Assembly: GCF_018977255.1 (NCBI RefSeq)
Contig: NW_024704742.1
Span: 50,842,001-50,906,000 of the forward strand
Source of the DNA: Callorhinchus milii
Lineage: Eukaryota
Reading direction: 5' to 3'
Length of the DNA stretch: 64,000 nucleotides
Shown here: piece by piece, positions 1 through 62,599 of the stretch
Numbering within the stretch: position 1 is the stretch's first letter
How the letters are laid out: every line of letters starts with the position of its first letter
Translations under genes and position numbers: made by a program
Notes under the pieces: model-generated
Database searches by the model: none
What the model saw: only the letters and a program-made list of their open reading frames with translations
What the model was told of the DNA's origin: nothing

Positions 1-765
1 CTTTCTTCAGTGTATCCAGATGGACATTGATGGCAATCTCTGCTCTGAGCTTGTCAGGAAGATACTTCAAAACTTCTCTTTCATCTACAGCTTTTTTGTT
101 TGTCCACAGGTAGTCAAACCACTTGATAACTCTTTTCTCCAAATCCTTGCTCACTTTTCGGAAGTGCATGTACTGTTTGATAGCATCGATCCTTGACTGA
201 AACTCTGCACGAGCTGCATTCATGTTAGAAATCATGGAGCCAACATTACCGACAATGGTGGCAAAAATCAACACTCCAATCAAGAAATCAGCGACCACAA
301 AGATGTATTCAGAATCCTGGACAGGAGGAGGTGTTTCTCCAATGGTGGTTAATGTCAGCGTTGACCAATAGAGGCTGTAAACATACTTTCTAGCAAGCCG
401 AGAAAATTCTGGAAGAGAGATATTTGGATACACCCATGTGTCTGCTCCAAAACCTATTACTTTGGAAATTGAAAAATACACACAAGCATTCCAGTGGATA
501 ATGATGCATATGTACATGACAAGGTTGGAGATCCTGAACATGTTTGGATAGTTTGTCCGCGTTTCTGTTCTTGAAAAGAACTCAAACAATCGATTAATCC
601 GCAACAACTTGTTTAATCTAATCTCTGGATAACTCATTCCAACGATTAGGTATAGGACATCAGTTGGTATCATTGATACAACATCTAGTTTGAATTGCAA
701 TGTCTTCAAGTATCTTTCTCTGAGTTTCTTTTCATCGGTAATCAATAGTCCTTGTTCCAGATAAC
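1..765 (-). CDS. CNGA1: CNGA1 large terminal coding exon (S2-S6, pore, C-linker), truncated by the window edge
   Basis: Acceptor tgcag| then [19 protein letters not shown]...[58 protein letters not shown]...[21 protein letters not shown]; contains the CNG pore motif TIGETPPP. Confidence 0.96.
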
Positions 766-37369: not shown

Positions 37370-38760
37370 TCTTCCACCTCCGACGCATCACCCGTCTCCG
37401 CCAATACCTCTCCCCAAAAGCCGATGAAACCCTGGTCCATGCTTTAGTCACCTCTCGGCTGGACTACTCTAACGCCCTCCTCGACGGTCTCCCATCCACT
37501 ACCATTCATTAAAATCCAAATCATTCAAAACTCTGCCGCCCGCATTCTCACCCGCACAAAACTCCGCTCCCTTATCACCCCAGTCCTTGCCAGACTGCAC
37601 TCGCTGCTTATCCCAGAGAGGATCGATTTCAAGATTCTCACCCTTTTATTCAAGTCCCTGCACTCCTCTGCACCCCCCCTACCTCTCTGACCTCCTCTCT
37701 CCTCAAAACAGTTGCCTTCGTTCCTCTGGGACTGGCCTCCTCCTCGTCCCCCGAGTCCTTCGCTCCACCTTCGGCGGCCGTGCCTTCAGCCACTATGCCC
37801 CGAAGCTCTGGAACTCCCTTCCTTACTCCCTTCGCCTCGCCCCCTTTCTTCCTATTTTCAGTTCTCGGGGTTCTGTTCGACCCTGAGCTGTCCTTTCTCC
37901 CTCATATCCGCGCCACAACTGGCACCGCCTTCCATCACTTCCGGAATGTCGCCAGACTACAACACTACCTCACCCCTCACGCTGCTGAAACTCTGGTCCA
38001 CGCCTTTATCACCTCAAGGCTGGACTATGGGAACTCTCTCCTCGCCGGCCTTCCCGGCACCTCCCTCCACAAGCTGCAGGTCATTCAGAACTCTGCAGCT
38101 CGTGTACTGTCCCGCACCAGGCTTCGGGACCACATCACTCCCACCCTCGCTCGCCTCCACTGGCTCCCCATCCCCCAGAGAATCGATTTCAAGATCCTCA
38201 CCTACAAGGTCATTCACGGCCTTGCTCCCTCCTACCTCTCCGACCTACTATCCCCCTACCTACCTGCCCGTACCCTCTGTTCCTCTGGCTCCGGTCTGCT
38301 CCACATCCCCCGCCCCAACCGCCCTACCATCGGTGGCCGGGCCTTCAGCCTCTCAGCCCCGAGGCTCTGGAACGCTATCCCCCAGTGCCTTCGCCGCCTC
38401 CTCCCTTTCCTCCTTCAAGGCCGGTCTCAAGACCTTTCTCTTTGACCGTACCTTCAGCTCCCCTCTCGACTCTCTACCCCCTCCTCGCTCCCTCCTTTCC
38501 CTCCCCTCACCCTGACCATTTCCCCCTCTGCTCGGGTCCTGACCCGACTGTACAGTGCCTTGGGACGTCCTCCCGACGTGAAAGGCGCTCTATAAATGGA
38601 ATCTTGTTGTTGTTGTTCTCTGTTGAAGACCTTTCTTTTCGACCGCGCCTTTGGTCACCTTCCTCCCCCTGGCTCGGGCCCAGGATCTGCTACTGTGAAG
38701 CGCTCTGAGATGCCATCTGGCGTGGAAGGTGCTATATAAATCCAAGTTGTTGTTGTTGGT
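37370..38760 (+). mobile_element. Nested L2 elements: a younger L2 (37867-38614) inside another L2 subfamily
   Basis: Two runs of L2 ORF2 C-terminal sequence; TSD gttctc at 37861-37866 and 38615-38620; the host 3' end resumes after the insert. Confidence 0.88.
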
Positions 38761-43222: not shown

Positions 43223-43479
43223 GTGCCATCTTTTCTTTACCCTGCCCGACCTCCACTCAGAAGGCCTTATGTCGGATTATTAATGTAACCAACAGAGAAG
43301 CCAATCACGTCCACAGCATCTCCAACACATTAAATGGAACACACACAGGATCAGAAAACAATTCAGTTTGTATATTGGTTTGTTCCTAGCAGTCATTTCC
43401 AGTCTCTTCATTGGATGCAGCTTTATATTTAAGAAGAAAGGCCTCTTGAGATTGTCAGAAAAAGGGATTACCAGAGCTG
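43223..43479 (+). CDS. NIPAL1: NIPAL1 coding exon 2, with an apparent 1-nt deletion near 43360
   Basis: ttccag|[30 protein letters not shown]...GSEN, then in a shifted frame [40 protein letters not shown]|gtaagg; 257 nt where a phase 1-1 exon needs a multiple of 3. Confidence 0.9.
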
Positions 43480-46466
43480 GTAAGGGTTCCTTCTATGTTC
43501 GAAATGACAGTGTGTAAGTTTAACGAGGTGTAATTGTTCAGGCATAATCTACCTGAAATATAGCTCTTTGAAAAAGAAATTAGTTGACAGTAAATCACTT
43601 GGATGTTAGTCAAGTGTTCCTCAGTATTTTTTTGGTGCACTGCAAGATGTAAAATGTGACCAATGTAATTAACTTTCCTTTTGAAGTGTTTGCATGCCTG
43701 ATGCTCTGAAGCGTTGTGAAAAATAAAAACACTTTACTGAGTGCAATAGGTTCGTGACCATAAAGTGCAGTTTAGATTATTCACATGATTTTGCTGTGTT
43801 GCACTGAACATGCAAATCGAGCTGTATTTGCCTATATTGGTCATTAAGGCCTACAGAAGTCACAAAAACAAACTAGACCCACGGCAGTTCGGAACAAGAC
43901 CTGACTTTTTGGCACTTAGTCCACTCCATGTACAGAGGAAAGTTTCCACAGTGAGAGGAGGATGAGAGGGGATGCTGAGGGCTAGGGGCACAGTCCTCAT
44001 TCCTAGCATTTCCCAACCTCTCCACCTGCTCACACCACCACTATTTGGCCAACTTTGCCTATCTATGGTCATTTCCCCTTTCTCCCCTTTGCCTTGGTGT
44101 CAAACTCCGCCATTGTTCAACGCTCCGAGACCTTACCCAGCATGAAGGGTGCAAAATAAATGCAAGTTGTCAGTGTTGAAGAGCTTTCCATAACTGACAC
44201 TTCATTCCATTGTTATGTAAGCCTTCTTGACCATGTGATAATGTGCTATATTAAATGCAAGGATTATTTATTGCCCTTTTGTAAATTCCTTCAATATTTT
44301 TTGTACTGAACTGTAATTTTACACCCAGCTAAAAGTAGATCCCACTTGATATTAACTAATCTGTCAGAAGTAAGTAGTAGACAAAGAAAATAACTTGAAT
44401 TTATAATAATAATAATCCTTGCATTTGATACAGCACTTTTTACCTCTTCTCGACGTCTCAAAGAATAGACTGTAAAGTGAATTGACTGTATATTTGTGGG
44501 CAAAACGCAGTAGCCAATTGTGCACAGCAGTGTCCCTCAAACAGTCGTGGATTGAAAATGCCCAATTTATTATTGTTTTTGTTTTTGGAGGGATTAATAT
44601 CAGGCGTGTGGAATAAGGAAACTTGCCCAAGGTTTCGCCCTGCCTGACTATTATACAACAATAGTCTGATGAATACAAATGCTATTGTTAAACTCTGGAA
44701 TGCTCTGCCTCAATCCTTCCGCATTGCCCTGTTTTACCCGAATTCAAAATACACCAGAAAACCATCCTCTGCGACTGTGCTTTCTGTTTCATTCGCGCAA
44801 TAATCACATCTAGGCTCGACTACGCCAACTCCCTCCTTGTCGGCCTTCCCAACTCTTCCCGCCACAAGCTGCAGATTATCCAGAACTCTGCAGCACATGT
44901 CCTCTCCCACACCAGGCTCCATGATCCCATCACCCTCACCCTCGCCCTGCTCTACTGGCTCACCATCCCCCAGAGGATAGAGTTCAAAATCCTCGTCCTC
45001 GCCTTCAAGGCTCTCCACGTCCTTGCCCCTCCCTACATTTGGGACCTGCTGACCCCATATCAACCTCTTTGTCTCTTTCATTCAGCAGGCTCTGGCCTGC
45101 TCCATGTACCCAGCCCACTCCACCATCGGCAGCTGGGCCTTTAACCTTTCTGCCCCCACCCTATGGAACTCCACCCCATCCTATTATCTTCTCAATTCAG
45201 CCAGTAATTTGCTCTGTAAAGGTTGGGTAGGACCCAGGAACAGAGGGAGACAGAGACAGTAAATTTCCTTTTTATAATTCTATTTATTCCTTTAACATGC
45301 ATGTTAGTCATTAATATCCTTCAACTACATTTGCTATGTAATAGATAAAATACACGATCTGTCTCGTGTTGACATCTGTTTTGTAGGAGGTGAGGCAGCC
45401 AGCACCCATCTTGACTGTATGGTTATGCAATCACCTCTTCCTTGCTTACCTTGTTGTTTATTACTATATGCCTGTACAATTCATTGCTTTATTTGGAAAT
45501 CATATGAAAAAGCTGAATACAAGTAGTCTATTCTTCAAATCACAAGTTACTGTTTTGGGCATCTGGTATGACTTCAATATCCCAACAGTGTCACTATTCA
45601 GTTCCTCATTTAATTTCAGACTAACAAGCAATTCATTTTGCATACAACATTAGATTTAACAACAGCATTTATAATTATCACAACACTGTTGTATAAATGC
45701 AAACTATTGCCTTTGTCTACTATTTACACATGAGTCATGACAGATCAGTCAATATCAAGTAACATATGCTTTTATTTAGGTGTAGCATTACAGATCAGTA
45801 CAAAAAATGTATCATCATATGTTAAATTGCTCTTTTGGAGCACTTTCTAAGTACTTCCTGTATTTATCCTCCTTAGTTTTTTTTTCTTGGTCAACCAGGA
45901 GCCTGACACATGTAGAAACCTATCACCATGCTAAAGAGAATTCAAACTAAACTGAGATTTCCATGCATCCCACCTATACATGGAAATTTGTATTGCTATA
46001 TAAAAAAAATATATAATTATATTGCTTGCGCCACAAAAGGGAAACATCAGAAACATAATCCAACAATGGAGATGGATTACTTGTGTTCTGTGCCACTACT
46101 GATTGCACATTGGGAGTAAACTCTTCACCAGTTTGCATTCTGTCCAGTTCAGCTGAATGCCAAGGATTTCAAGGTCAAAAACAGTGTAATGCTTTGTTTT
46201 CTGTAAATACAAACCTGTATGTTTTGTATAACTGAAGATCTGTAGCGCAACCTTGAGTATTTGTGAACCATATAACATGACTTCAGTAACTCAGCCAAAC
46301 TCCCTTCATCGATTCCTAGTGAGCACAGGTGGTTTCTCTGTCTGGCTTTCTGCCAGGAAACACTATGCAAATTTGTATTGAAGCTATTAAAATGTTGATA
46401 ATGTTTAGAAAAATATTTCTTTGACAATTAGTAAATATAATTCTTAAATACAGCTTTAATTTTGAA

Positions 46467-46571
46467 ACAAAAACAGAAGTCGCTGGGAACACTCAGCAGG
46501 TCAGGCAGTATCTATGGAGAAAGGAAAGTGAGTCAACGTTTCGGTTCCACAACCCTTCATCAGAATTGAAC
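46467..46571 (-). mobile_element. Penelope-like terminus with an intact hammerhead core
   Basis: 10-bp TSD taattttgaa at 46457-46466 and 46572-46581; minus strand CTGATGA-AGGGTTGTGGAACC-GAAAC-GTT. Confidence 0.7.
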
Positions 46572-46974
46572 TAATTTTGAAGCCGTTTTTCTGTCATTTT
46601 CTTTTAAAGGCTACAGGAAACCAGCTTCAAAGTTGAGACTGAATTCAATAATTTGCCACATTCTGGACCTCTATGTTAATAATAGATATCATATCCATCA
46701 TATGAAACAATTAAATCATACACAGGGATACGGCACCGAAACAGGCTATTTGGCCCAAATAATCAGTGCTGGTATTATACTCCACACGAGCCTCCATTCT
46801 CCTATTCCCCGTTTCCTCATGTATGCATTAAGTTTCCTCTTAAATACATTGGTGTGTTTTTCTTCAACCACAGCTTCTGGAGGTTATTGGCCTTTGTTGC
46901 CCCACTGACATCAGCTCCAAATTGGCCCTGACGCTGAATCCATCAAATGAATTGACTTCTGTTTATCTTTACAG

Positions 46975-47031
46975 GTCAAGGAGGGTATGCATACCTCAAA
47001 GAGTGGCTGTGGTGGACAGGTTTGATCTTTA
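46975..47031 (+). CDS. NIPAL1: NIPAL1 coding exon 3 (57 nt)
   Basis: ttacag| GQGGYAYLKEWLWWTGLIF A|gtaagt. Confidence 0.95.
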
Positions 47032-47682
47032 GTAAGTGATGTTTTTAATTAAAATAATAGTGACCAAAGGCAAGAATTAGTTAACATGAAGATCATTTTC
47101 TTTTAAAGTTCATTTAATTAAATTGAAACCTCCTTAGCACATCTCGGCCTTAGGCTTCGAGTTCTGCACATTCCGTTGTATGTCTTCACACATGTATTTA
47201 TTGCTCAGATACCTACCTTACCTTTAAGTGCCTCCATGGTCTTGCTCCATTCCTTATCTTTGTGATTTCCTGCAATCCTACTCCACTGGCCACATCCTGT
47301 GCACAGGTACATTTGGCTTGTTTTAGGGCCCACTATATATTTATATGAATGCAATTTGTTATTGATCCACCCTGCCATTGACAGAGAAGCTTTCAGCTAC
47401 TTTTCCAAAATTCTTCTGTTAACAAAAGCTATCTGAAAACCCTTTTTGACTGCACTTTGACCACCTTCCTCCTACCACCTCCATCTTCCTCCCAACTCAG
47501 GCTAACACTTTCTTTGTAAAGTGCTTTGAGATGTTCTTCCTACATGAAAGGTGCTGTGTAGGTGCAAATTGCTATCGTTGTTGAAGATTGTTAGTTTCAT
47601 TTTAAAAACACACAGGTTGAGAAGACTAAAGCTATCGAAAACAGCTTTGATAGTTTGCATTGACTTCAGATACTGAGACTGA

Positions 47683-47865
<183 letters not shown>

Positions 47866-48619
47866 TAATTGCATGTATTTTGAACATGTATTTTTTTTCA
47901 AAACTTTCAATTTCAATCCTTGTCCTTTTACATACTAGGAAAGCACTCTATTTACTTGGCATATAGGGAGCAATCAAACACTCAATTTTGATCTTTAAAG
48001 AATAAATTAGAACATAAATTTTTATTCAAACTCTCAATAGAATTCGATTCTTTGATTCAACAAGTTCACCAATTATTTAAAAAAAGTGTAATGCTGTGAT
48101 GGCAGGAGTACAGCAGGGAGGGTATTCTGGAAAGGTCAAATGTCATTTTCAATGAATAATAATAATAATCATTGCATTTGATATAGCGCCTTTATATCAT
48201 GTCTCAAAGGGCTTCACAGAATATACTGTAAAGTAAATTGACTATATATTTTGTGGGTGAAATGCAGCAGCCTGTTGGACACAGAAGTGTCCCACAAACA
48301 GTCATGGATTGAGTGACCAAATTTATTATTTTCATTTTTTTTTGGAGGGATTGTTACCCCACCCCCCACCCCCCAAAAGTGATCTACCAATCGACTAACA
48401 ACCGGGTTCCTACTAACTGCTAGGTAAACCTGTGTCCTCTTGCTTGTTAACTCTGGATTTTTATTTGAATAATTTGCCGAAGATCTTTTCGATATAATAA
48501 TTTCATTCTGCAAATACAGTATTTTCTGTGTGTGTAGTGCTAAGAAAATAACATGTTCAAGGCAAAAATTAGAGACTGGATTATTTTATCGATTTTTGTT
48601 CTACTGGCATTTAGATTGA

Positions 48620-49800
48620 ATTGTAAATGGACGTTCCAAGGTGCTGGACAGTGTATAGCATTTCAGACCCGAGCTGGGGTCGGTAGTGGGGAAGGGAGAG
48701 GAAGGGAAGGGGGGTGGCCGATGGCATGGTCGAAGAGGAGGGTCTTGAGGCGGGACTTGAAGGAGGGGTCGAGACGGAATGACTGGGTGATGGTATTCCA
48801 GAGGTTGGGAGCAGAGTGGCTGAAGGCTCTCCCGCCAATGGTGGGGCGGGTGGGTCGGGGGACGTGGAGCAGGCCAGAGCCAGTTGAGCGGAGGGAATGG
48901 GCGGGTTAGTAGGGGGTTTAGAAATTTGCAGAGGTAGGGTGGGGTGAGGCCATGGAGGGCTTTGTATGTGAGTATCAGCATCTTGAACTGGATCCTCTGA
49001 AGGATAGGGAGCCAATGGAGTTGGGCGAGAATGGGGGAGATGGGGTCACGGAGTTTGGTGCGGGAGAGGTCACGGGATGCAGAGTTCTGGATTATCTGCA
49101 GCCTGTGGAGGGAGGAGTTGGGAAGGCTGACAAGCAGGATGTTTGCATAGTCAAATCTGGAGGTGATGAAGGCATGAACAAGAGTTTCAGTGGCCTGAGG
49201 GGTGAGGTATTGGCGGAGTCGGACGATGTTACGGAGGTGAGGGAAGGCAGAGCAGGTTATGGTTTGAATGTGGGGGAGAAAAGACAGTTGACGGTCGAAC
49301 AAGACACCCAGGTTCCTGACTGGTTTGGTGAGTTGTAGTGTGCAACCATGGAGGCTGATGCTGCCAGAGCCTGAGGTGCTGAGGCACTGGCACAAGCCAA
49401 TCAGGAGGGCCTCAGTCTTGTTCACATTCAACTGTAGGAAATTTGCCCTCATCCAGGATTTGATGTCCGACAGACAGTCTGTCAGGACAGCAGTGGTCCT
49501 GGAGTTGAAGGTGGAGGCAGAACGATAGAGTTGGGTGTCATCCGCATACATGTGGAAGTTGACCCCATGTCTGTGGATGATGTCACCAAGGGGAAGCATA
49601 TAGATATTAAAGAGGAGAGGGCCAAGGACAGAGCCCTGGGGGACGCCAGATGTGACAGTGCGGGGGCTGGAGGAGAAACCGTTAGAGGCAACGAAGTGGA
49701 GATTGTGAGAGATAGGAATCGAACCAGGCAAGGGAAGGTCCACGAAGATTGAGTAAAGCGGAGAGGCAGTGTATGAGGATGGAGTGGTCGACAGGATAGG
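48620..49800 (-). mobile_element. L2 LINE, 5'-truncated, with the C-terminal half of RT
   Basis: Encodes [17 protein letters not shown]...HMYADDTQLY...FLQLNVNKTE...LHWLP. Confidence 0.93.
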
Positions 49801-50404
49801 ATTGTACTGGCATTTTTTGGGGGTTAGTCGGATGTCTGATAAAATGCGGAAACCCATCACCATCTTTAAGAGTATCCAAACTAAACTGAGAATTCCAAGC
49901 ATCCCACCTACACATGGAAATTCCAGCGATAGATTGTTGGAATAGAATGCACACTCTTTCTGGAGGGTTGCATCCTGCTTTACCTAATTCCAGAAAGTAT
50001 TAGGCACAGGTCAGCAAGAGGAGTAGGAATTACATGAGAACATTACAGAAGCTCTGTTGAAGTTATTGTTTTATACGCTGGAGAGCCACAAAGCTCCATC
50101 AGGAGCTTTGCTCTGCACCTAAGCCCTTGCACCTGTAGCTAACATTTGGGTGTTGCCCAAGTGCTCTGAAAAGCTACCCTGCGTGGAGGATGCTATATAA
50201 GTGCAAGTTGTTGTTGTTACTGTTGCCAACCAAAGATTTTGTTTGTGGAGTTTTCCATTCCCTGTCATTGATATCCTAAAATTACTGAGCATAAATATTC
50301 ACTCAAAATATAGATTTTTGTATAGAGTTTTAAAAAAGTGCACCTTCAAAGGATGCATCTTATTGAAATGCAGTGCTAACTCTTCCTTTGTACATCACAA
50401 CCAG

Positions 50405-50565
50405 TGCAGTGCTTTCATCATATATCTTAAATGAGCGACTTAATATTCATGGAAAACTGGGCTGTATGCTGAGCATCGTGGGTTCAACAGCAATGGTAAT
50501 CCACGCTCCACAAGAGGAAGAAGTCCAATCCTTGCAGGATATGGAAGAAAAGCTCAAAGATACCG
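50405..50565 (+). CDS. NIPAL1: NIPAL1 coding exon 5 (161 nt)
   Basis: ccag| [54 protein letters not shown]|gtatg. Confidence 0.95.
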
Positions 50566-51528
50566 GTATGTTCCCTTTTATTGTTTATTTTATTTTTTTA
50601 AAGAACAGAAAGTGCAGAATTCTGAAAGGAGATCTCATTTTAGCAAGATTTGCAGAAGGATTTGTGAATGTGAGGTAGGAACAGACGAGGCACATGGCAT
50701 GCTGGGCTATATTGGTAATGAGTTGGGCTCAGATTCTCAGAAGTCCGACTGGAGCTCTATAGCTCTGGCCTCCTGCTTGTTCCTCATCCCCTCTGCTCCA
50801 CCATCGCTGTCTATGGTTTCAGCCACTGAGCCCCAAAGCTTTGGAACTCTTTCCCTCAACTGCTCCGCCCTGCCCCCTCCTTCCCCTCTTTTAGATCATG
50901 ACTCAAGATCTTACTCTTTAACCGTGCTTTCAGTCACCTTCTCTCCTCCCAGCTCGGCGTCAGGCTCTGCTACTGTTGAACGCTCCAAGACACTGCTCCG
51001 TGTGACACCAGACCAGAGCACTGTATATTTTAAAAGGATTACGAAAATAAACTCAGAGGCCAGAACACTGGGCTAATTTTTTTTTGAAAAACAGCTTGAT
51101 GGTATGATAGGAGGACAGTAGGGTAGGTAATCTGGAAGGATGAGATCAAATGGGTTGAAGGATATGAGATGGCTGACATTCTGTAACTCCACTCAGATGA
51201 CAAACCTGAGATTGTGTCTGAACAGAGATTGAGGCTTGGCCTTGAAACATCGAGATTCTCTATTTCCAAATCTTTTTACGAGTCTCCCAAAGAGCACCCA
51301 TGGACTCTTTCCAGAAAGCATTGCTTCTCTTTGCAGGAACAGCCATCAGAATAGTCCTGTGTTTTATTCCACTTTTGTAAAGTACCTTAATTTTAATTGA
51401 TGGACTGCATTCTTGTCTTCATGTAATGCTAATTGGAAATATTCAGCCCAACTTCACAGTATGCTGGCTAGAAGTATTGTTTTTTGAAAATGATAATCTT
51501 ATTTTATTGTATCTTCTCTTTCCTCTAG

Positions 51529-52178
51529 GATTCATCATATTTGCCAGTGTCACAGTTATGGTTATTGTGGTACTGATTTTCTTTGTGGCCCCCAAAATGG
51601 GACACAGCAATATCTTGGTCTATATTTCCATCTGCTCACTGCTTGGGGCCTTTACTGTATCCTCTGTGAAGGGACTAGATATTGTTATTAAAGAACTACT
51701 TGAAAAGAAACCGGTAGCAACCAACCCATTGACTTGGATTCTATTGTTCACCTTGGTGATTTCCACAAGCACTCAAATCAACTACCTAAACAAAGCACTT
51801 GACGTCTTCAACATCTCTATAGTGACCCCTGTTTACTATGTATTTTTCACTAGTGTGGTCATAACTTGCTCTGTAATATTTTTCAAAGAATGGAACAGCA
51901 TGGACATTAAGGACACCATTGGGAATATCAGTGGGTTCTGTACCATAATCATTGGCATCTTTCTACTTCATGCTTTTATGGATGTTGAATTTACCTGGGA
52001 ACAGTTAACATCTCTCATTAAGAAAGATAGAGCACAAATGAATGGATTTGGGCATGATGACCACCAAGTCTTACTGGAGAACATGGGCAGCCCATCAATT
52101 AATTATAATGATGAAGCAAATATATTCTTTAACTCTACCGGAGCAAATATTTTGGATGACGCCAATCTAAGTAAGTAA
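51529..52178 (+). CDS. NIPAL1: NIPAL1 terminal coding exon 6
   Basis: ctctag|GA TTC; FIIFASVTV...NILVYISICSLLGAFTVSSVKGL...QINYLNKALDVFN...VLLENMGSPSINYNDEANIF...stop; C-terminus is NIPAL1-like; an AATAAA lies at 52731. Confidence 0.95.
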
Positions 52179-53981: not shown

Positions 53982-56900
53982 ATGTTCCTTTTTCTTATCA
54001 TGCAAGGAATGGGTTATAAAATATTTCACTGCTAAGTACCATTCCAGGAAAACCACAGGGAATAACTGAAGATCGAGGCAAGAATCCAGTTTGATATCAG
54101 TTTCTATTCATTACAGTGAACGATAAAACCCCAGACAGTATCCTTAGATATAATTCAGTGTTGCTATGTTACAGTCTACAATTTGTACCTGAGTGTCATT
54201 ATTGCATTCTCTTTACTCTTACCTGTATTTCAGTATTCATTGCCGTGATGAACAAACCAGATACATGCTGCAATACAAAAGATGTCATGCAACATGGAAG
54301 ACAATTGCAGTTGAAATATGGGGGGAAAGCTTCTAATGAATTCAACCGAAAATTACTAGCAGCAGAAAAGAGAGTAATTTAAAATAATAATAGTCCTAGC
54401 ATTTGATATAGGGCCTTATCACGTCGTTGAGACATCTCAAAGCCCTTCAAAGAATATGCTATAAAGTGGATTGACTATATTTGCGGGCAAAATGTGGTAG
54501 CCAGTGTCCCACACACAGGCATGGAGTGAGTGACCGATTCATTTGGGGAATTTATTGCCAAAAAAAGTTGCTTCTCTTTTCAAATAGTGCCATGGGATCT
54601 TTAACGTCCACCTCAACAGGCAGACGGGACCTCAGTTTAAACTCTCATCCAAAAGACAGCACCTCTGACAATGAAACAACCCTGCAGCACTGCATTGGAG
54701 TATTAAAATAGTTAGCAAACAAGTAAAGGGGGAGTCAGGAGAATTTTGTTTCATGTCGAGTAGTTAGGATAAGCTGAGAGGCTTTGTACCTGAGTGTCAT
54801 TGATTCTACCTGATTCTACCTGAGTTGAGGTAGAATCCATATTAGCTTTCAAAAGAAAACAAAACAAATATTTTAAAAAAAGTAAAGTCTAGGGGTATGG
54901 GGAAAGGGCAGGTATATAGGACTGAAAAGATAGCTCTTCAAAGAGCTAGCACAGATAGTGGGCAGCATGGCCAGCTGCTGTGCCTTAAATTTCAATGGTT
55001 CTAAGAATCACAGGATTATTCCAAAGTGTTAATTGGAGAAATGTGAGAATTCAATCTCAGGCTGGAGAGGCACCTCTTCACACCCCCTCTTTATGCTCTC
55101 TATTTTACTCCATTTGACTTTCATAATTTGTTTTATATCCTATAGAGCAGAAACCTGAGCACATCTGACAACTGCACCTGACAACAATAACAACAAATTG
55201 CATTTGTATAGCGCCTTTCATGTCAGGACAGCATCCCAAGGTGCTGGACAATCAGGGATTTGGACAACAACAATTTGCATTTATATGGAGTAGCATCCCA
55301 GAGTGCGAGCATGGGGTTGGGATCAGGAGGGATGGAGGGCAGGGAGGGTAGCAGTAAAAGGGTGAGAGTCGAAGTGGAGGGCTTTGAGCCAAGCCTTGAA
55401 GGAAGCAAGGGAGGGATCTAGGCTAAGGGACTATGGGATGGAGTTGCATAGGTTAGGGGCAGAGAGGCTGACATTCACAATGCAAACTGTAGAAAGAGTG
55501 AACAGTACAAATTGTACCTTACCACCCAGGGCATCATATTCTTGCACTCCTTTATTTCACACTTGCATAAATGGACAATGCCAGGGATCACATCCGGAGG
55601 CAAATCATGTTCAGCCTTACTCAGCATTATATTCCTTAAACACAGGGGCTAAAATCTTTAGCAAAATGGGAGAGAGAACCCAATTGTCCAGCGCTTTGGG
55701 ACATCCTCCCGACGTGAAAGGCACTCTATAAATGAAATCTTGTTGTTGTTGTTGAGAAGGATGATTTGCCATGTTGTAGCCAATTAAGATGTGGAATTAC
55801 TACAGGATTGTACAGGAAGGGTGGCTGAGGGGTATGGGTGGGGATAGAGAGGGAGGGGAGATTACTTTGGGTGGAGGCTCACAGGGAGTATAAAATACTT
55901 GCATGGATTAGTTTGGCCAAATGATCTGCTTTGTTGCTGTAGATTCTAAATGATTCTATGTAATATTTATTTTATCAGTTTCGAGAGAGAATCAAGCAAA
56001 GCTCTGTGATAACAACAGTGAATGCTGCTGTTTTGCATTGAAATTTATTTAATGAGTTTGTGACACATGTAAGTTGACTCTCCTCTCCCCCTCCCCTCCA
56101 CCCACTCGAGCTTTACAACTGGTCCACAAGCTGCTGTCTCGTTACCATCTTGTTACATTACTAAGAGCAGGCGTTTCATATAGTATATTAACATCCTCCA
56201 TTTGTCTTCTCTTGGCAAAGATAAAAAAAGATAGGGCTTAGGAAGTAATCTTTCTTTTACAACGCAGACTGAAGTCAAAGAGATAGAGAAGCAGTCTGTC
56301 CCTTTGGAAAAAAAACAGTTATTTTAATTAAGTGCCATTTGGTAGACCACAAATACAAGAGCTCAGTGATTAGCCTGAGGTCCATCACCACTTTGATAAT
56401 AACATCACATTTGACAAAACAACAAAAAGATAAAAGAGCAGCATCAGGTAAGATTGTAAATAGTGTACCAGAAAAAATGATTTGTCGTATCATTATTCCT
56501 CAAGAACAATGTACAGAAAATTCTATGAGTGTAACATTCGTTTTTTTTTTAAACATTTAGCCTTTGTGTGTATTTTTCTCTTTTTGATTGAAATGATGGT
56601 TAAAATGATTGCCTGAAGCCTGGGATAAGCATATTTTCTGTGCTGTTAAAGCTGCATCATCAGTTTGCCAGTAATGGAAGCCACAGCAGAGACCAACAGA
56701 GCAAATGAAAAACATCATTATATTTAAAGAATTTGAGTTGTGAATATTAAGTAAAGTACAATCTCTCAAATGGCAAGCATCAAGCAGAGGGAACATAAAT
56801 ATCTGTGGCTGTTGAATTAAACATTTTTTCTTGAATAGCAGAGGTTGTAGCTAAGGTTCATCTTTCAAATACAGTATGATGAAAAATGAGTCTACATACT

Positions 56901-57524
56901 GTGTGCTGCGGTTAGTGATAAATATATCAAATATGCTCTTATTTCCCCTTTACAGAAATATTGCAAACAGGATTGCAATCCTGTTTTACAGATGAACATT
57001 TTAAAACTGTCCAAAAATTTCCATGTTGAAACGTTTTATACTAATACAAGAGAAAAAATTTCTCTGCAATAGCAATTCAGTGGGAAAATAATTCATTATC
57101 ATTATTTCATTAATATGCTGTTTAGGTACGCGAGTTTTAATATATTATTATCATCAATAGGCAATATCATGAAGAGAACGTTTTACGAGAGATGATTTTA
57201 TTTTAAAAAACATTATCCATTTGCTTCTAAGCTTTTGCCTCAAATGCTTGTAGCAGAAATAATATCATTTTATGTTGCTTTTCCAAATTGAGAGATATGG
57301 GCTCAAAATGTACACTTTGTGTTAAATGTAATAGTGACATGTTCAAAGTGCCTGTGGTGACATGTTCTATGTGGAGCTGGCTGAGGGAAGTGAAATATCA
57401 GGCTATCAATACTATTTTATAAGCGATTGAAGCATGAATAAGGCACAAGCATGAGTAATCTGATAACACCTACCCTCTCATGGAACAGGGTTGGGGTGAA
57501 CGGGTTGTCTTGTGCCTTTGCTAC

Positions 57525-57634
57525 TTATAGTGAATTTGTATGGGCTATTTTGCTATATTCTGTGGGATAAACTTAGCAAACGTGAATTTTGCAATAGCAA
57601 ATAGAGGAGAATAGCCCATACAAATTCACTATAA
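57525..57634. repeat. MITE-like hairpin with perfect 25-bp inverted arms
   Basis: ttatagtgaatttgtatgggctatt (57525-57549) is the reverse complement of 57610-57634. Confidence 0.85.
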
Positions 57635-58352
57635 AGAAAGCTCTAATAAGTTCTGCTTTAATAGCTAAAGTGAGGGTTGTATCTGCACCATAGTGAAAAC
57701 AATGAGAAGTCTTAATACTTAAAAAACTTCATTCATAGAATATAATTAGAAAGACAATTTCTTTAGGATTTGAAATACTGCACTTTATAATATTTGACAT
57801 TTAACTACAGTTTTCCCCAATGTCATTGTTGATTTCCATATATAGCCATAAGAAAACATAAAGACTGTAGAAGAACCAGGTAATGAATCTCTCACACATC
57901 TATCTCTCTGCATGTTGATCCATGTTGAGGTGTATGTAGTGTTATCCCATCACATATCGCATCCACCAACCCCATAGTTTCAAAATATAAAGTTAGCAAA
58001 TAGCTCAGGAGAATGTTTTTAGTAGAATGGTCATCAATATGTGGAATAAACTGCCATCACTGTCCGAGAAAGGAGGAAATATAAACGGTTTCAAGTAGGA
58101 ACTATTAATGTGCCAAATGAATACGTGAGGAAGTTAACTCAATATTTTGAGTGAGCTAGGTGACAATGTGGTCTGCACCTGCTTGTAACTGTTACTATCT
58201 TGCTCTAATACAAGTTCTCCTTTATTTAAAGCAGTACAATATATACGTTCAGATTATTAGAATGCAAATTCCTCTTTAAGCAGATTAACCTGTAAAGCTA
58301 GTTGAACTGTATTTTTCTGTTTAACCTACAGCACGAGAGAGATCTGCATAAA

Positions 58353-59033
58353 ATGAAAATTGAAGTAAAAAATATTTCTTTTACATCAGCCTTGGTTTCC
58401 TGGTCTCCTCCTCAGCGTAGCTGCCTCAGGAATTTCTACCAGATCATGTATAGACCTAACTGGAATAGGATTCTCTCTGGAATTTCGAGGCAGAACTTTC
58501 CCCGTGAGAAGCTGGTTCCTTTGAGCCACACCTCCATAACATTGAAGGCATTGACACCCAGCACACAGTATATTTTTTGTATGGCATGCCAGGGTACGCA
58601 TCTTTCTAGAGATCAGTGCACCACCTTTCACACCATGGCCAAAGAGACTGTGGTCGTAGGTGGTAAGAAGCTTGACCTGGCCATGATTGTTTGGCTAACA
58701 AGTAGCACTCTTCTCATTATAATTGTCATCATTCTACTTTATGGTTGCTTCAAGATGTGGGTTAAAAGGTGCAAGAGGAATGCCAAGGGATACAATCTTA
58801 GCCATAGCACTACTGCCAATAGAGAAGCTAGCCAAGCCTGGCACGTGGGCAATGCTGAAACTGCCCTGGTTGAAGTTCAGTTTGAAGTGCCCACGCTGGC
58901 ACTACTTGATCGATTTGCAGAATCCAAATCTGATGCTCTAATTGAAAAAGCTTTCAGCGGGACAAAGAATTTGCTGTCACAGAAAAGGGACAGTGATAAA
59001 AGGGCTATTTTACCACAGAGTGGTTATGAATAA
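58353..59033 (+). CDS. FNDC9-like fibronectin type III plus single TM protein, 226 aa, one coding exon
   Basis: MKIEVKNISFTSALVSWS...YQIMYRPNWN...LTPSTQYIFCMAC...CTTFHT, TM LAMIVWLTSSTLLIIIVIILLYGCF, C-terminal AILP; strongly resembles FNDC9 (MNIEVGNISYTGAIISWS...YHIMYRPNWN...AILP); acceptor ctacag| at 58331 implies an upstream UTR exon. Confidence 0.9.
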   Translation: MKIEVKNISFTSALVSWSPPQRSCLRNFYQIMYRPNWNRILSGISRQNFPREKLVPLSHTSITLKALTPSTQYIFCMACQGTHLSRDQCTTFHTMAKETVVVGGKKLDLAMIVWLTSSTLLIIIVIILLYGCFKMWVKRCKRNAKGYNLSHSTTANREASQAWHVGNAETALVEVQFEVPTLALLDRFAESKSDALIEKAFSGTKNLLSQKRDSDKRAILPQSGYE

Positions 59034-60077
59034 CAAAAGGGTCATCTTGCTTTTGGTGACGTGCATTCAATTACTAGTAAATGTTAAGAGATGTTATAGA
59101 TTCATAATGTAATGTATGAACATACTACAAATTGTTCAGAGAATTGGTGCAAGTAAATGCGACTCTGACAGATGTTTAAATGTCAGATAAATATATCATA
59201 TCTACAATATGTGTTCTATCTTTTGTTTTGCTGTAGCTTAATCATCGTAATCTGCTGTTATATCACAATAGGAATTGTACTTATTAGGTATTATGATGCA
59301 TGAATATAAAGTCTGCAACATATTAAGTCAGATTATAGTAAATTTTGCTGCTTGTTTTAAAAAAGCACCATTTCTGCAGAGAGTTGGGTTGAGATTGTAT
59401 AAAATGTTACCTTGGATTTAGTGACCAACAATGGCTGTGTTGTTCTTGCTTCACTAAAGATAACACCTTTTTGTTTCACTTATTTAATTGTTTTAGTGTT
59501 GAATGCAACATTGAAAGGAAGTGTTATCAAGCTATGAATGCATTTAAAATTTAGAATACAACATTTTATGCAATAACAGAGGAGTCATTAAGCTTATTGT
59601 TTTCAGACTGGTGAAGCTGGTGACTCCCTTACTGAAGCTAATCCTGTTCTCATGCTCTTTCTCCATTCCCCTCATCTCCACCCTCTAATATGACTTTTCC
59701 TTAAGTATTAGCCAATTCCCAATTAAATGCTGTTATAAATTCTGTGTAATTTGTGGTAAACCACACTGTAACAATTGTGTATAAAAAATGAATTTTCTAA
59801 CCTCAGTTAATTTATTTTTGGTCAGCCGGGTGTCTTACATGTTCGGAAACCCATCACCGTGCTTAAGAGTATCCAAACCAAGCTGAAATTTCCATGCATC
59901 CCACCTACACATGGAAATCCCAGAGATAGATTATTGGCATGGAATTCTCACTCTCTCCCTGGAGGGACTCATCCTGCTTACCTAATTTCAAACAATATTA
60001 GGCACTAGTTGGCAAGAACAAAGGCCCAAAGTGTGCATGCTGCAGACAGGACCTTGGTTTAACATCTCATTGGAAGG

Positions 60078-61475
60078 ACAACAAAATTACATTTATAGAG
60101 CGCCTTTCACATCGGGAAGACGTCCCAAGGCGCTGGACAGTCAGGGGTCAGGACTGGAGCATGGGGGAGGGGTGGGGTAGGGGTGATAGAAGGCAGAGAG
60201 GTGGGAGGGCGACTGAAGGCACGATCGAAGAGGAGGGTCTTGAGACCGGCCTTGAAGGAGGCAAGGGAGGAAGCGAGGTAAAGGGACTGTGGGATGGAGT
60301 TCCAGAGTGTGGGGGCAGAGAGGCTGAAAACTCGGCCACCGATGGTAGGGCTGGTCGGGTGGGAGACATGGAGCAGGCTGGAGCCCACTGAACGGAGGGA
60401 GCGGGCAGGTTGGTAGGGAGTCAGCAGGTCAGAGAGGTAGGAGGGAGCAAGGCCATGAATGGCCTTAAAGCTGAGAAAGAGGATCTTGAATTCGATCTTC
60501 TGAGGGATGGGGAACCAGTGGAGTCGGACGAGGGTGGGAGTGATGGGGTCACGGAGCCTGGTGCGTGAGAGTACACGAGCTGCAGAGTTTTGGATGATCT
60601 GCAGCTTGTGAAGGGAAGAGTTGGGAAGGCCGATGAGGAGGGAGTTTCCATAATCGAACCTTGATGTGACAAATGCGTGGGTGAGGGTTTCGGCAGCCTG
60701 AGGGGTGAGGCAGTAGCGGAGTCTGGCAATGTTGCAGAGGTGGTGGTAGGCAGTGCTGGTCACGGCGCGGATATGGGGGAGAAAGGTCAGTTCAGGGTCA
60801 AATAAGAAACCCAGGTTCCTGACTGGCTTAGTGAGGTTGAGTGTGCAGCCGTGGAGGCTGATGCTGCCAGTGTCCAAGGTGCGAAGGCGCTGGTGTGAGC
60901 CAATCAGGAGGGCCTCGGTCTTGCTGACGTTGAGTTGGAGAAAGTTGTCCCTCATCCAGGACTTGATGTCCGACAGGCAGTCGGTCAGGACAGCAGTGGT
61001 CCTGGAGTTGAGGGTGGAGGCAGAGAGATAGAGTTAGGTGTCATCCGCATACATGTGGAAATTTACCCCATGTCTACAGATGACATCACCAAGCGGGAGC
61101 ATGTAGAGGGTGAAGAGGAGGGGACCGAGGACAGAGCCCCGAGGAACACCGCACAAGATTGTGCGGGGGCTGGAGGAGAAGCTGTTTACTGAGACAAAGT
61201 GGAGGCGGTGTGAAAGGTAGGACCTGAACCAGTCAAGGACAGAACCTTGGAGGTTGAGGTGGGAGGAGAGGCGGTGGAGGAGGATTGAATGGTGGGCAGC
61301 ATGGAAACCTGATTGGAGGGGCTGATGGAGGGAGTGAGAGGAGAGGAAAGAGCGAAGCTGGGAGGCAACGGTTCTCTCAAGGACCTTAGACAGAAAAGGG
61401 AGGTTGGAGATGGGACGGTAGCTGGATAGCTGTGATGGGTCAAGGGAAGGTTTCATCAAGGTGGGGGTGATAGTG
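60078..61475 (-). mobile_element. L2 LINE, 5'-truncated, with RT
   Basis: Encodes [15 protein letters not shown]...[13 protein letters not shown]...MYADDT; inserted within a Deu-type SINE. Confidence 0.93.
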
Positions 61476-62599
61476 GTTGTTCTTCCGACAATGCAGCACT
61501 CTCCCAGACCACAACAATCTTTTATGAAACACCACTTTTGAAAAGGAAATGATTCACCAATGAAGAAATAAATATTATCTTTTGATCCATAAAATAAATA
61601 AGTTTCTTGTATCAACACTGGACAACTTTTTAAAGTGAGACATATGGAGCTGCATTGTAAAAATACAAAAGGAAAAAGTGGGTCTAAAATCACAACAAGC
61701 ATCCAGGACATTGTCATTTGTATTCATTGGGTATAGACAAGAGAAAAACAACTTCATCCAAACGTCAAGTCACTTGTATTATTATTCCACATTGGATTTC
61801 TAAGAGTTCCAAGTAGATTGATTTATCTGATGACTCAAACCACTCTGAACATATTATCGCCCATCAGTTGTGCTTTGTTTCTGACCACCATGTGGAGCTA
61901 GCTGGTAAAGTAAATATACTCTGAACTGCAGAGGTGGAAATGACACCTCCGACAATGCAGCACTCTCTCAGATTACAATAATCTTTTATGAAGCACCACT
62001 TAGAAGCATCACATTATGGTTACAGCACTCGCCTCGCAAGCGAGAGGACCCAGGTCGATTCCCGGGCAGGGCAAAAGTTTCCTTACTTTGGACGCCTCTG
62101 TTGATCTAGCAGTAAGTAGGAACCAGGTTTCTACTGGATTGGCAGATCGCTTTTTGGGGGTAATAATCTCTTAAAAAATAAATAAAATAATAATTTGGTA
62201 ACTGTTTGTGGGTCACTGTTGTGCGCAGTTGGCTGTCGCATTTTGTCCACAAAATATACAGTCAATTCACTTTACACCATATTCTGTGAAGCGCTTTGAG
62301 ACGTCTCAATGACATGATAAGGCGCTATATCAAAAGCAAGGATTATTATTATGTTTCCATCTACATTTACAAACAGAAAAACTGGAGGGAATTAACTCTC
62401 ACAGATAGAAACTAAATGAATGAAATATAACAACAACAAAATTATATTTGTACAGCGCCTTTCACATCGGGAGGATGTCCCAAGGCTGAAGGATGTAAAT
62501 TATTTATTAAAATCAATATGCTAAGTTAGTCATGGTAATGGCCAGTGAGTGGCAGCACAAACCTGTGCACCACAAGTGAAAGGACAGGAAGTTTGCTAT

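Follow-up and report, generated by a model that had tools for sequence, protein, structure and literature searches.

A host-less FNDC9-family gene beside NIPAL1 in Callorhinchus milii, a probable product of genome duplication

The window gene and its neighbours

The window analysed here, a 64,000-nt stretch of the Callorhinchus milii genome (C1:50842001-50906000; C1, C4, C13, C15 and the like are contigs of this genome), carries a gene of the FNDC9 family on its plus strand at 58353..59033. This gene, referred to below as the window gene (protein P0002), lies between a NIPA-family gene and two Tec kinase genes located beyond the right edge of the window. Positions are those of the window unless a contig is named.

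2..700, minus strand: CNG channel gene, part of the large coding exon (CNGA1 by position; Pfam Ion_trans, E 1.8e-26)
43371..52178, plus strand: NIPA-family gene, NIPAL1 type (PF05653 matches; N-terminal extension; flanks as in paralogon 15A in the available text of Lamb 2021, PMC8040251)
54248..54373, plus strand: extra coding exon of the public 275-aa model P0005, a probable prediction artefact (its first 42 residues map 42/42)
56098..56447, plus strand: probable non-coding first exon, without ATG, ending in CAG/GTAAGA (contig 56098-56424 of run X2, depth 18)
56448..58331, plus strand: probable intron of 1,884 bp, GT...AG by sequence (no X2 cover; an X1 contig of 210 bases inside)
58332..58352, plus strand: 5' untranslated stretch of the coding exon, by sequence
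58353..59033, plus strand: CDS of the FNDC9-family protein, single exon, 226 aa (P0002; ORF, fn3 match, homologues)
58353..58640, plus strand: FN3 domain, aa 1-96 (Asn7 sequon and Cys24/76/79/89 invariant; clade-specific one-residue insertion after Trp17)
58668..58754, plus strand: transmembrane helix, about aa 106-134 (Trp114 and Cys132 invariant; five Lys/Arg after the helix)
58803..59030, plus strand: predicted disordered tail, aa 151-226, with AILPQ at its end (pLDDT under 50; tail motif)
59034..59727, plus strand: probable 3' UTR (X2 contigs to 59083 and at 59145-59329; ATTAAA at 59722)
C1:50917364-50933399, minus strand: Tec kinase, TXK type by domain content (SH3, SH2 and kinase exons; no PH/BTK exons found)
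C1:50947504-50994252, minus strand: Tec kinase, TEC type by domain content (PH and BTK motif)

The gene order on C1 is CNG(-), NIPA(+), window ORF(+), Tec kinase without PH/BTK(-), Tec kinase with PH and BTK(-). The leucine zipper (CLZ) of the CNG gene is located just left of the window (C1:50841435-50841647). Exon matches of the NIPAL1-type gene fall at 43371-43499, 46971-47030, 47758-47853, 50388-50594 and 51507-51983; its stop at 52178 lies 6.2 kb before the window ORF. The names CNGA1, NIPAL1, TXK and TEC were given from domain content together with the available part of the Lamb table (PMC8040251), whose supplement, as far as available, has NIPAL1 and TXK adjoining in gar, chicken and human. 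The original prediction took the neighbour for NIPAL1 and not NIPAL4, and the flanks bear this out, with the TXK- and TEC-type genes that were to be looked for present downstream. It had also seen no CYFIP exons nearby. When 204 kb of C1 were searched with a 1253-aa CYFIP model, indeed no domain match reached E<0.01 (the best had E 0.68), compared with 30 such matches on C4, and genome-wide the CYFIP Pfam family matched C4 and C13 only, with no match on C1. Multi-copy sequence makes up about 30% of the C1 region; by eye, most of the remaining long ORFs of the window (37795-38515, 48601-49902, 60107-61717 and others) resemble fragments of LINE reverse transcriptase.

The window gene is genuine, intact, conserved and previously auto-annotated. 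The 226-aa ORF had been placed at 58332..59033; it is intact, but its ATG lies at 58353, and 58332 is the first base past the acceptor AG (58330-58331). The features that had suggested FNDC9 were all recovered in the encoded protein. Pfam fn3 matches residues 3-77 above the cut-off (E 1.2e-6), hydropathy windows over 1.6 cover residues 106-140 as the single hydrophobic segment, no hydrophobic segment occurs within residues 1-40 by hydropathy and model (best 19-residue mean 0.34), and AILP occupies residues 218-221. A precomputed domain match to FNDC9_C (PF28127), an Atlas score of 0.99 against FNDC9 clusters and a match to platypus FNDC9 at E 1.5e-29 were also found. With an N-terminal FN3 domain, FNDC9_C and full-length similarity, and one helix without a signal peptide, the window gene belongs to the FNDC9 family. 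Over its full length the protein is 61% identical to lungfish XP_043917348.1 and 51% to axolotl XP_069487805.1, both orthologues by tree, which rules out a chance ORF. The guess that the gene might already be annotated was correct: the protein cluster includes the public C. milii FN3 protein XP_007891030.1 (P0005), which is the window gene.

An AlphaFold model from a 50-row alignment (pTM 0.46) predicts seven strands in a domain that begins at residue 3, followed by a helix over residues 106-149; pLDDT stays below 50 in the tail. Fold searches matched FN3 domains (best Z 12.1, rmsd 2.0, 85 aligned); the hits were generic FN3 domains, and no solved structure of an FNDC9-family member was among them. 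Run X1 carries a G>A at 58757 that would turn Met135 into Ile just past the helix (one contig, depth 4).

The public 275-aa model (XP_007891030.1) adds 49 N-terminal residues, a start that we rejected as homologues in all three groups of the family start at most three residues from the Met at 58353. The candidate UTR donor pointed out at 56447 (CAG/GTAAGA) is present, and the 6.1 kb that separate the NIPAL stop from the acceptor contain no other AGGTRAG; chance alone would yield about 0.6 such 7-mers in that length, so that the motif by itself is weak evidence. Contigs of run X2, presumed to be RNA, cover 56098-56424, 58682-59083 and 59145-59329 and nothing between the first exon and the coding exon, in agreement with one coding exon preceded by a non-coding one. 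Run X1, whose RNA nature is a guess, covers 57279-57488 and 58307-59087, the latter beginning within the intron, 25 bases before its end, as would be expected of DNA or of RNA that was not spliced; run X3 gives one long contig across the stretch, and run X9 gives zero cover of it. A 56447-58332 splice junction is not listed in these four runs. ATTAAA at 59722 is the only AATAAA/ATTAAA within 2 kb of the ORF. Buffalo FNDC9 has two exons in the available text of PMC8615036. A non-coding first exon and one coding exon are plausible for the window gene, not proven.

FNDC9-family and CYFIP loci elsewhere in the genome

Searches of C. milii by tblastn, with the window protein and with platypus FNDC9, returned two strong matches each, namely the window and C4:78313200; weak matches fell on C5, C7, C9, C657 and elsewhere on C1 (E 0.01-0.2). 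A profile run over the examined C. milii blocks found two FNDC9-family genes only. The second gene is located as follows.

C4:78313200-78313865, plus strand: FNDC9-family C4 copy (P0006, 221 aa), antisense inside a 25,882-bp CYFIP intron

The neighbours of the C4 CYFIP gene are two NIPA genes and a gamma-tubulin complex gene, which we take to be the NIPA1-NIPA2-CYFIP1-TUBGCP5 layout. In the exon before the host intron, the C4 gene shares 27/29 residues with human CYFIP1 (3p8c_A) and the C13 CYFIP gene 20/29; in the exon after it the values are 41/48 and 37/48. Judged by sequence, the C4 host is CYFIP1 and the C13 gene is CYFIP2. The C13 gene (1253 aa) is placed after a Tec kinase with PH and BTK and before a NIPA gene, and it shares 3/3 exon boundaries quoted for human CYFIP2 (c.207, c.388 and c.2386) in the available text of PMC10532311.

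The C13 CYFIP2 intron after c.2673, following coding exon 22, is 88 bp long and empty. If human CYFIP2 has one non-coding first exon, its coding exon 22 is exon 23, and the next intron presumably matches the 88-bp intron of C. milii. Human FNDC9 lies within CYFIP2 intron 23 (PMC10532311, available text), and the C4 FNDC9-family gene sits in the CYFIP1 intron homologous to it. The nested position thus predates the CYFIP1/CYFIP2 split, because the equivalent intron holds a gene in C4 CYFIP1 and in human CYFIP2. A separate FNDC9 had been expected within CYFIP2. C. milii has no CYFIP2-nested FNDC9; its second copy sits in CYFIP1.

In the available text of PMC8040251, paralogon 15 comprises blocks A (NIPAL1/TEC/CNGA1), B (NIPAL4/ITK), C (NIPA2L/BTK) and D (NIPA2/BMX/CNGA3), branching as ((A,B),(C,D)). 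A fourth NIPA2/NIPAL-type gene of C. milii, detected by its last exon alone (C15:323988-324452), is sister to the C4 NIPA2-type copy (98/98) and fits NIPA2L of that scheme; all four NIPA ohnologues appear to be present. A search of the 100 kb surrounding this NIPA gene on C15 found no FNDC9-family copy (best E 4.7). In the tree of NIPA last exons, once rooted, C1 and C13 are not sisters.

CYFIP2 of C. milii (C13:19390800-19402910) is very compact: its 30 coding exons fit into about 12 kb, whereas CYFIP1 extends over about 75 kb. The C13 NIPAL4-type gene (C13:19409929-19410651) lies on the same strand as CYFIP2 and is directed away from the CYFIP2 3' end; the C1 and C4 NIPA genes are directed toward the (former) CYFIP 3' end. 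Block B probably underwent a local inversion long ago.

Protein clades and predicted membrane topology

A tree of 37 proteins, taken from the 120 listed of 228 matches, and four query proteins splits 100/100 into a window clade and a C4 clade, with axolotl in both. The window clade comprises chimaera, sturgeon, lungfish, a caecilian and three salamanders, to which a further search added bowfin and protein P0130 added paddlefish. The C4 clade comprises chimaera, five sharks, coelacanth, bichir, axolotl, frogs, turtles, crocodilians, birds and marsupials. Among the matches listed there was no placental member of the C4 clade, no cyclostome or invertebrate member of the family, and no window-clade member from sharks, teleosts, frogs or amniotes; the last absence is weak evidence, as bowfin surfaced only on further search. 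The gene is kept in the chimaera lineage, as had been proposed, but is not confined to it: a window-type gene also occurs in sturgeons, paddlefish, bowfin, lungfish, a caecilian and salamanders. On the sequences compared, the duplication that separated the two clades is older than the split between cartilaginous and bony fishes, since both clades span chimaera to tetrapods. Existing names do not follow the clades. Window-clade proteins P0007 and P0009 are plain 'FNDC9' in NCBI naming, C4-clade proteins are called FNDC9 or FNDC9-like, and the public 'FNDC9-like' labels are automatic and do not tell the three groups apart.

Mammalian FNDC9 was sampled by platypus alone (XP_028907996.1, P0124; two isoforms), which has a long branch (1.55) and whose CYFIP2 location is assumed from its name; nesting of C4-type genes was checked only in C. 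milii. Grouping of the window protein with canonical FNDC9 had been named as the outcome that would speak for a relocated orthologue, and the answer depends on the region compared. A 22-row full-length tree places platypus outside the window clade (support 81/92), and topology tests reject platypus with the amphibians, though only at p-AU 0.03, and platypus with a marsupial C4-type protein at 0.002. In the tree of FN3 plus transmembrane segment, the window clade does not resolve, and the topology test fails to reject three positions of platypus within it (p-AU 0.17, 0.24 and 0.36); joining both C. milii copies is rejected (p-AU 3e-38). As far as these alignments go, the trees prove the split between the window and C4 clades, not one between the window clade and mammals.

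Individual characters also bear on the position of platypus FNDC9. A one-residue insertion, W-x6-C, occurs in 14/149 proteins, all of the window clade (three of them the window gene's own), and W-x5-C in 132/149 including platypus FNDC9; 3/149 matched neither pattern. At four clade-diagnostic columns platypus has the window-clade state in none and the C4-clade state in two. A tail motif was counted in 12/147 proteins, with a pattern devised after the sequences had been viewed and therefore of little weight.

In the public paddlefish model XP_041131327.1 (P0130, 457 aa), the N-terminal half of a NIPAL1-like transporter is fused in frame with a window-clade protein; the fusion may reflect genuine read-through or an error of gene prediction. 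The NIPA part of P0130 carries the N-terminal extension that is found in the C1 and C13 genes and unmatched on C4. Three of its four core exons are nearer to C1 than to C13 (31/43, 28/31 and 41/58 against lower values; the short exon gives 14/18 against 15/20). Identity of the core to the C4 NIPA2-type gene is similar, and it is the N-terminal extension that sorts it. P0130 indicates that NIPAL followed by an FNDC9-like gene on one strand is an order that a ray-finned fish has as well.

Asn7 and the four FN3 cysteines are invariant in 50 alignment rows, an N-x-S/T sequon lies within the first 14 residues in 49/50, and basic residues number three before the helix and five after it. This pattern suggests that the FN3 domain is outside and the tail inside, with the helix as a signal-anchor. 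The window protein would then be a glycoprotein that spans the membrane once and whose insertion involves no cleaved signal peptide; its FN3 domain would bear the sequon and two likely disulfides, and a basic, probably palmitoylated juxtamembrane segment and the disordered tail would lie on the inside. The helix is better conserved between the window and C4 clades than any other part (62%, against 47% for FN3 and 11% for the tail); for the window gene itself, helix identity is 66% to the window clade and 62% to the C4 clade, whereas the tail falls from 43% to 11%. Between the window gene and platypus FNDC9 the helix is 21% identical. The protein is predicted to be a small adhesion or accessory subunit whose partner is bound through the FN3 domain and the conserved helix, a role for which we see even chances.

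Mammalian FNDC9 (platypus XP_028907996.1; human) resembles the window gene in its N-terminal FN3 domain without signal peptide, four invariant cysteines, Asn7 sequon, one helix, similar tail-end motif, short two-exon layout and paralogous flanks. It differs in sequence (31-36% identity, 21% in the helix), in lacking the W-x6-C insertion and in being nested antisense in CYFIP2 intron 23, whereas the window gene is host-less and adjoins NIPAL1. The CYFIP1-nested C4 copy has the same architecture as the window gene, with FN3 47% and helix 62% identical, but belongs to a separate clade (100/100), has a tail 11% identical without AILP and is still in its host in C. milii.

Studies that touch on FNDC9 are few. 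In their available texts, fndc9 marks brain cells in pipefish, the FNDC9 paralogue being unspecified (10.1101/2024.04.08.588518), owl feathers show co-expression of an FNDC9-like gene and pigment genes (PMC11799826), Fndc9 is among the genes tabulated in a bone-density screen in mice (PMC7822523), and a cancer review has no data for FNDC9 (PMC9750624).

Origin of the window gene and of the family

The window gene is likely a genome-duplication copy of FNDC9 in the NIPAL1-TXK block that survived loss of its CYFIP host. In this the original prediction of a retained ohnologue stands, with an FNDC9 paralogue in the CNGA1-NIPAL1-TXK-TEC block and the CYFIP host gone; the copy is, however, one of three likely copies and not the second of two. 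The flanks agree with such an origin. CNG, NIPA and Tec kinase genes lie on C1, NIPA, Tec kinase and CYFIP on C13, and NIPA, CYFIP and CNG on C4, and the NIPA and BMX families are consistent with 2R in the available text of Lagman et al. (PMC9803222). C4 has the order NIPA(+), CYFIP(-) with the nested gene(+), and human 5q33 and C13, when flipped, have CYFIP(-) then Tec kinase(-). The window order NIPA(+), gene(+), Tec kinases(-) equals this block minus CYFIP. No CYFIP remnant was found on C1, where we infer the host to have been lost.

Before the doublings, one gene would have lain antisense in the CYFIP intron after residue 891/892, within a block NIPA(+), CYFIP(-) enclosing FNDC9(+), Tec kinase(-). 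Block D would have retained CYFIP1 with its nested copy. Block B would have retained CYFIP2 with FNDC9 in mammals, the intron having shrunk to 88 bp and emptied in C. milii. In block C no FNDC9-family copy was found near the NIPA gene. In block A, that of the window, CYFIP would have gone and the nested gene remained at its original place and orientation, a survival made possible by a likely promoter and first exon of its own on the strand opposite to CYFIP. The family thus likely consists of three genome-duplication copies, one nested in CYFIP2 (mammalian FNDC9), one nested in CYFIP1 (sharks to birds and marsupials) and one host-less. That the host-less copy was lost in mammals, as had been proposed, stands as an absence from incomplete searches.

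Alternatively, the window gene could be the true orthologue of mammalian FNDC9, in which case the family would have two members. A single gene would then have passed from one of the sister blocks, A and B, to the other, either through a translocation or through exchange or gene conversion among homeologues not long after the second doubling. We regard this as unlikely, by either route. It would explain why C. milii CYFIP2 lacks FNDC9, is compatible with the FN3 plus transmembrane trees and fits the fact that no genome with both a window-clade gene and a CYFIP2-nested FNDC9 was seen; C. milii, which was searched, does not have both. Platypus FNDC9 also falls on the window-clade side of the tree and shares a common start, a YRPNW motif and the tail motif with that clade. 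Such closeness, however, is predicted equally by the sisterhood of blocks A and B (PMC8040251, available text), and platypus lacks the window-clade insertion. Moreover, the gene would have had to jump into the exact intron whose CYFIP1 counterpart already houses a paralogue or else, before the split of sharks and bony fishes, to the exact paralogous spot by NIPAL1. The case against orthology with mammalian FNDC9 is the weak point of the argument, as it rests on position, orientation and one indel and the trees do not firmly exclude orthology.

It is much less probable that, in an early jawed vertebrate, a CYFIP-nested copy gave rise to the gene by small-scale duplication or by retroposition and that the product landed by chance near NIPAL1, at a site that never held a CYFIP gene. 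The single coding exon, the lack of any CYFIP trace on C1 and the lack of notable DNA similarity to the C4 host intron (three short matches) fit such an event. Place and strand, however, are those predicted for a nested gene minus its host, the two-exon layout is that of mammalian FNDC9 (two exons in buffalo; PMC8615036, available text), and a recent duplication within the chimaera lineage is rejected by the topology test. That the ORF is a functionless relic, or the mere 3' part of NIPAL1 read-through transcripts as the paddlefish model and its presence in no run on record as RNA, with no junction seen, might suggest, is very improbable given 51-61% full-length conservation and invariant cysteines over more than 400 million years and a separate upstream segment covered in the presumed-RNA run.

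If a retained ohnologue is the correct reading of the window gene, the family would have a patchwork of losses. We put forward with some hesitation, as a view that may well fail, that its three members include two, the host-less and the CYFIP1-nested copies, that keep an ancestral, strongly conserved partner-docking helix, a motif that mammalian FNDC9 lost. Were this true, many 'FNDC9' genes of sharks, frogs and bichirs would not be orthologues of human FNDC9, and the ancestral function would best be studied in the two copies so far unseen in placental mammals. Hardly any work exists on FNDC9, and its automatic names lump together at least two and likely three paralogues; telling these apart alters which animal data bear on the human gene. 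The history of the window-gene family is apparently unpublished. We found no paper on FNDC9 paralogue history, though orthology tables, paywalled papers or supplements may already list the genes, and FNDC9 and CYFIP are absent from the available part of the Lamb supplement (PMC8040251).

The processes involved are already known; the locus adds a clear example of them and corrects the history of the family, without pointing to a new mechanism. According to the available text of Uvarov et al. (PMC3933685), clawed frogs keep lrrtm3 without ctnna3, and ctnna1 without lrrtm2, with an intron of 434 bp. As is likely for FNDC9/CYFIP, these are genome-duplicated pairs of host and nested gene in which one host was lost with the nested gene left in place, and the loss of lrrtm2 from ctnna1 parallels C. 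milii CYFIP2, in which the nested gene was lost and the intron shrank (434 bp against 88 bp). The gene families are different, and the loss of ctnna3 is amphibian-specific, whereas loss of the FNDC9 host would predate the split of cartilaginous and bony fishes. The C. milii genome by itself holds a nested-gene series, with host and passenger at CYFIP1, the host alone with its 88-bp intron at CYFIP2 and the passenger alone in the window, which marks the likely site of a lost CYFIP copy.
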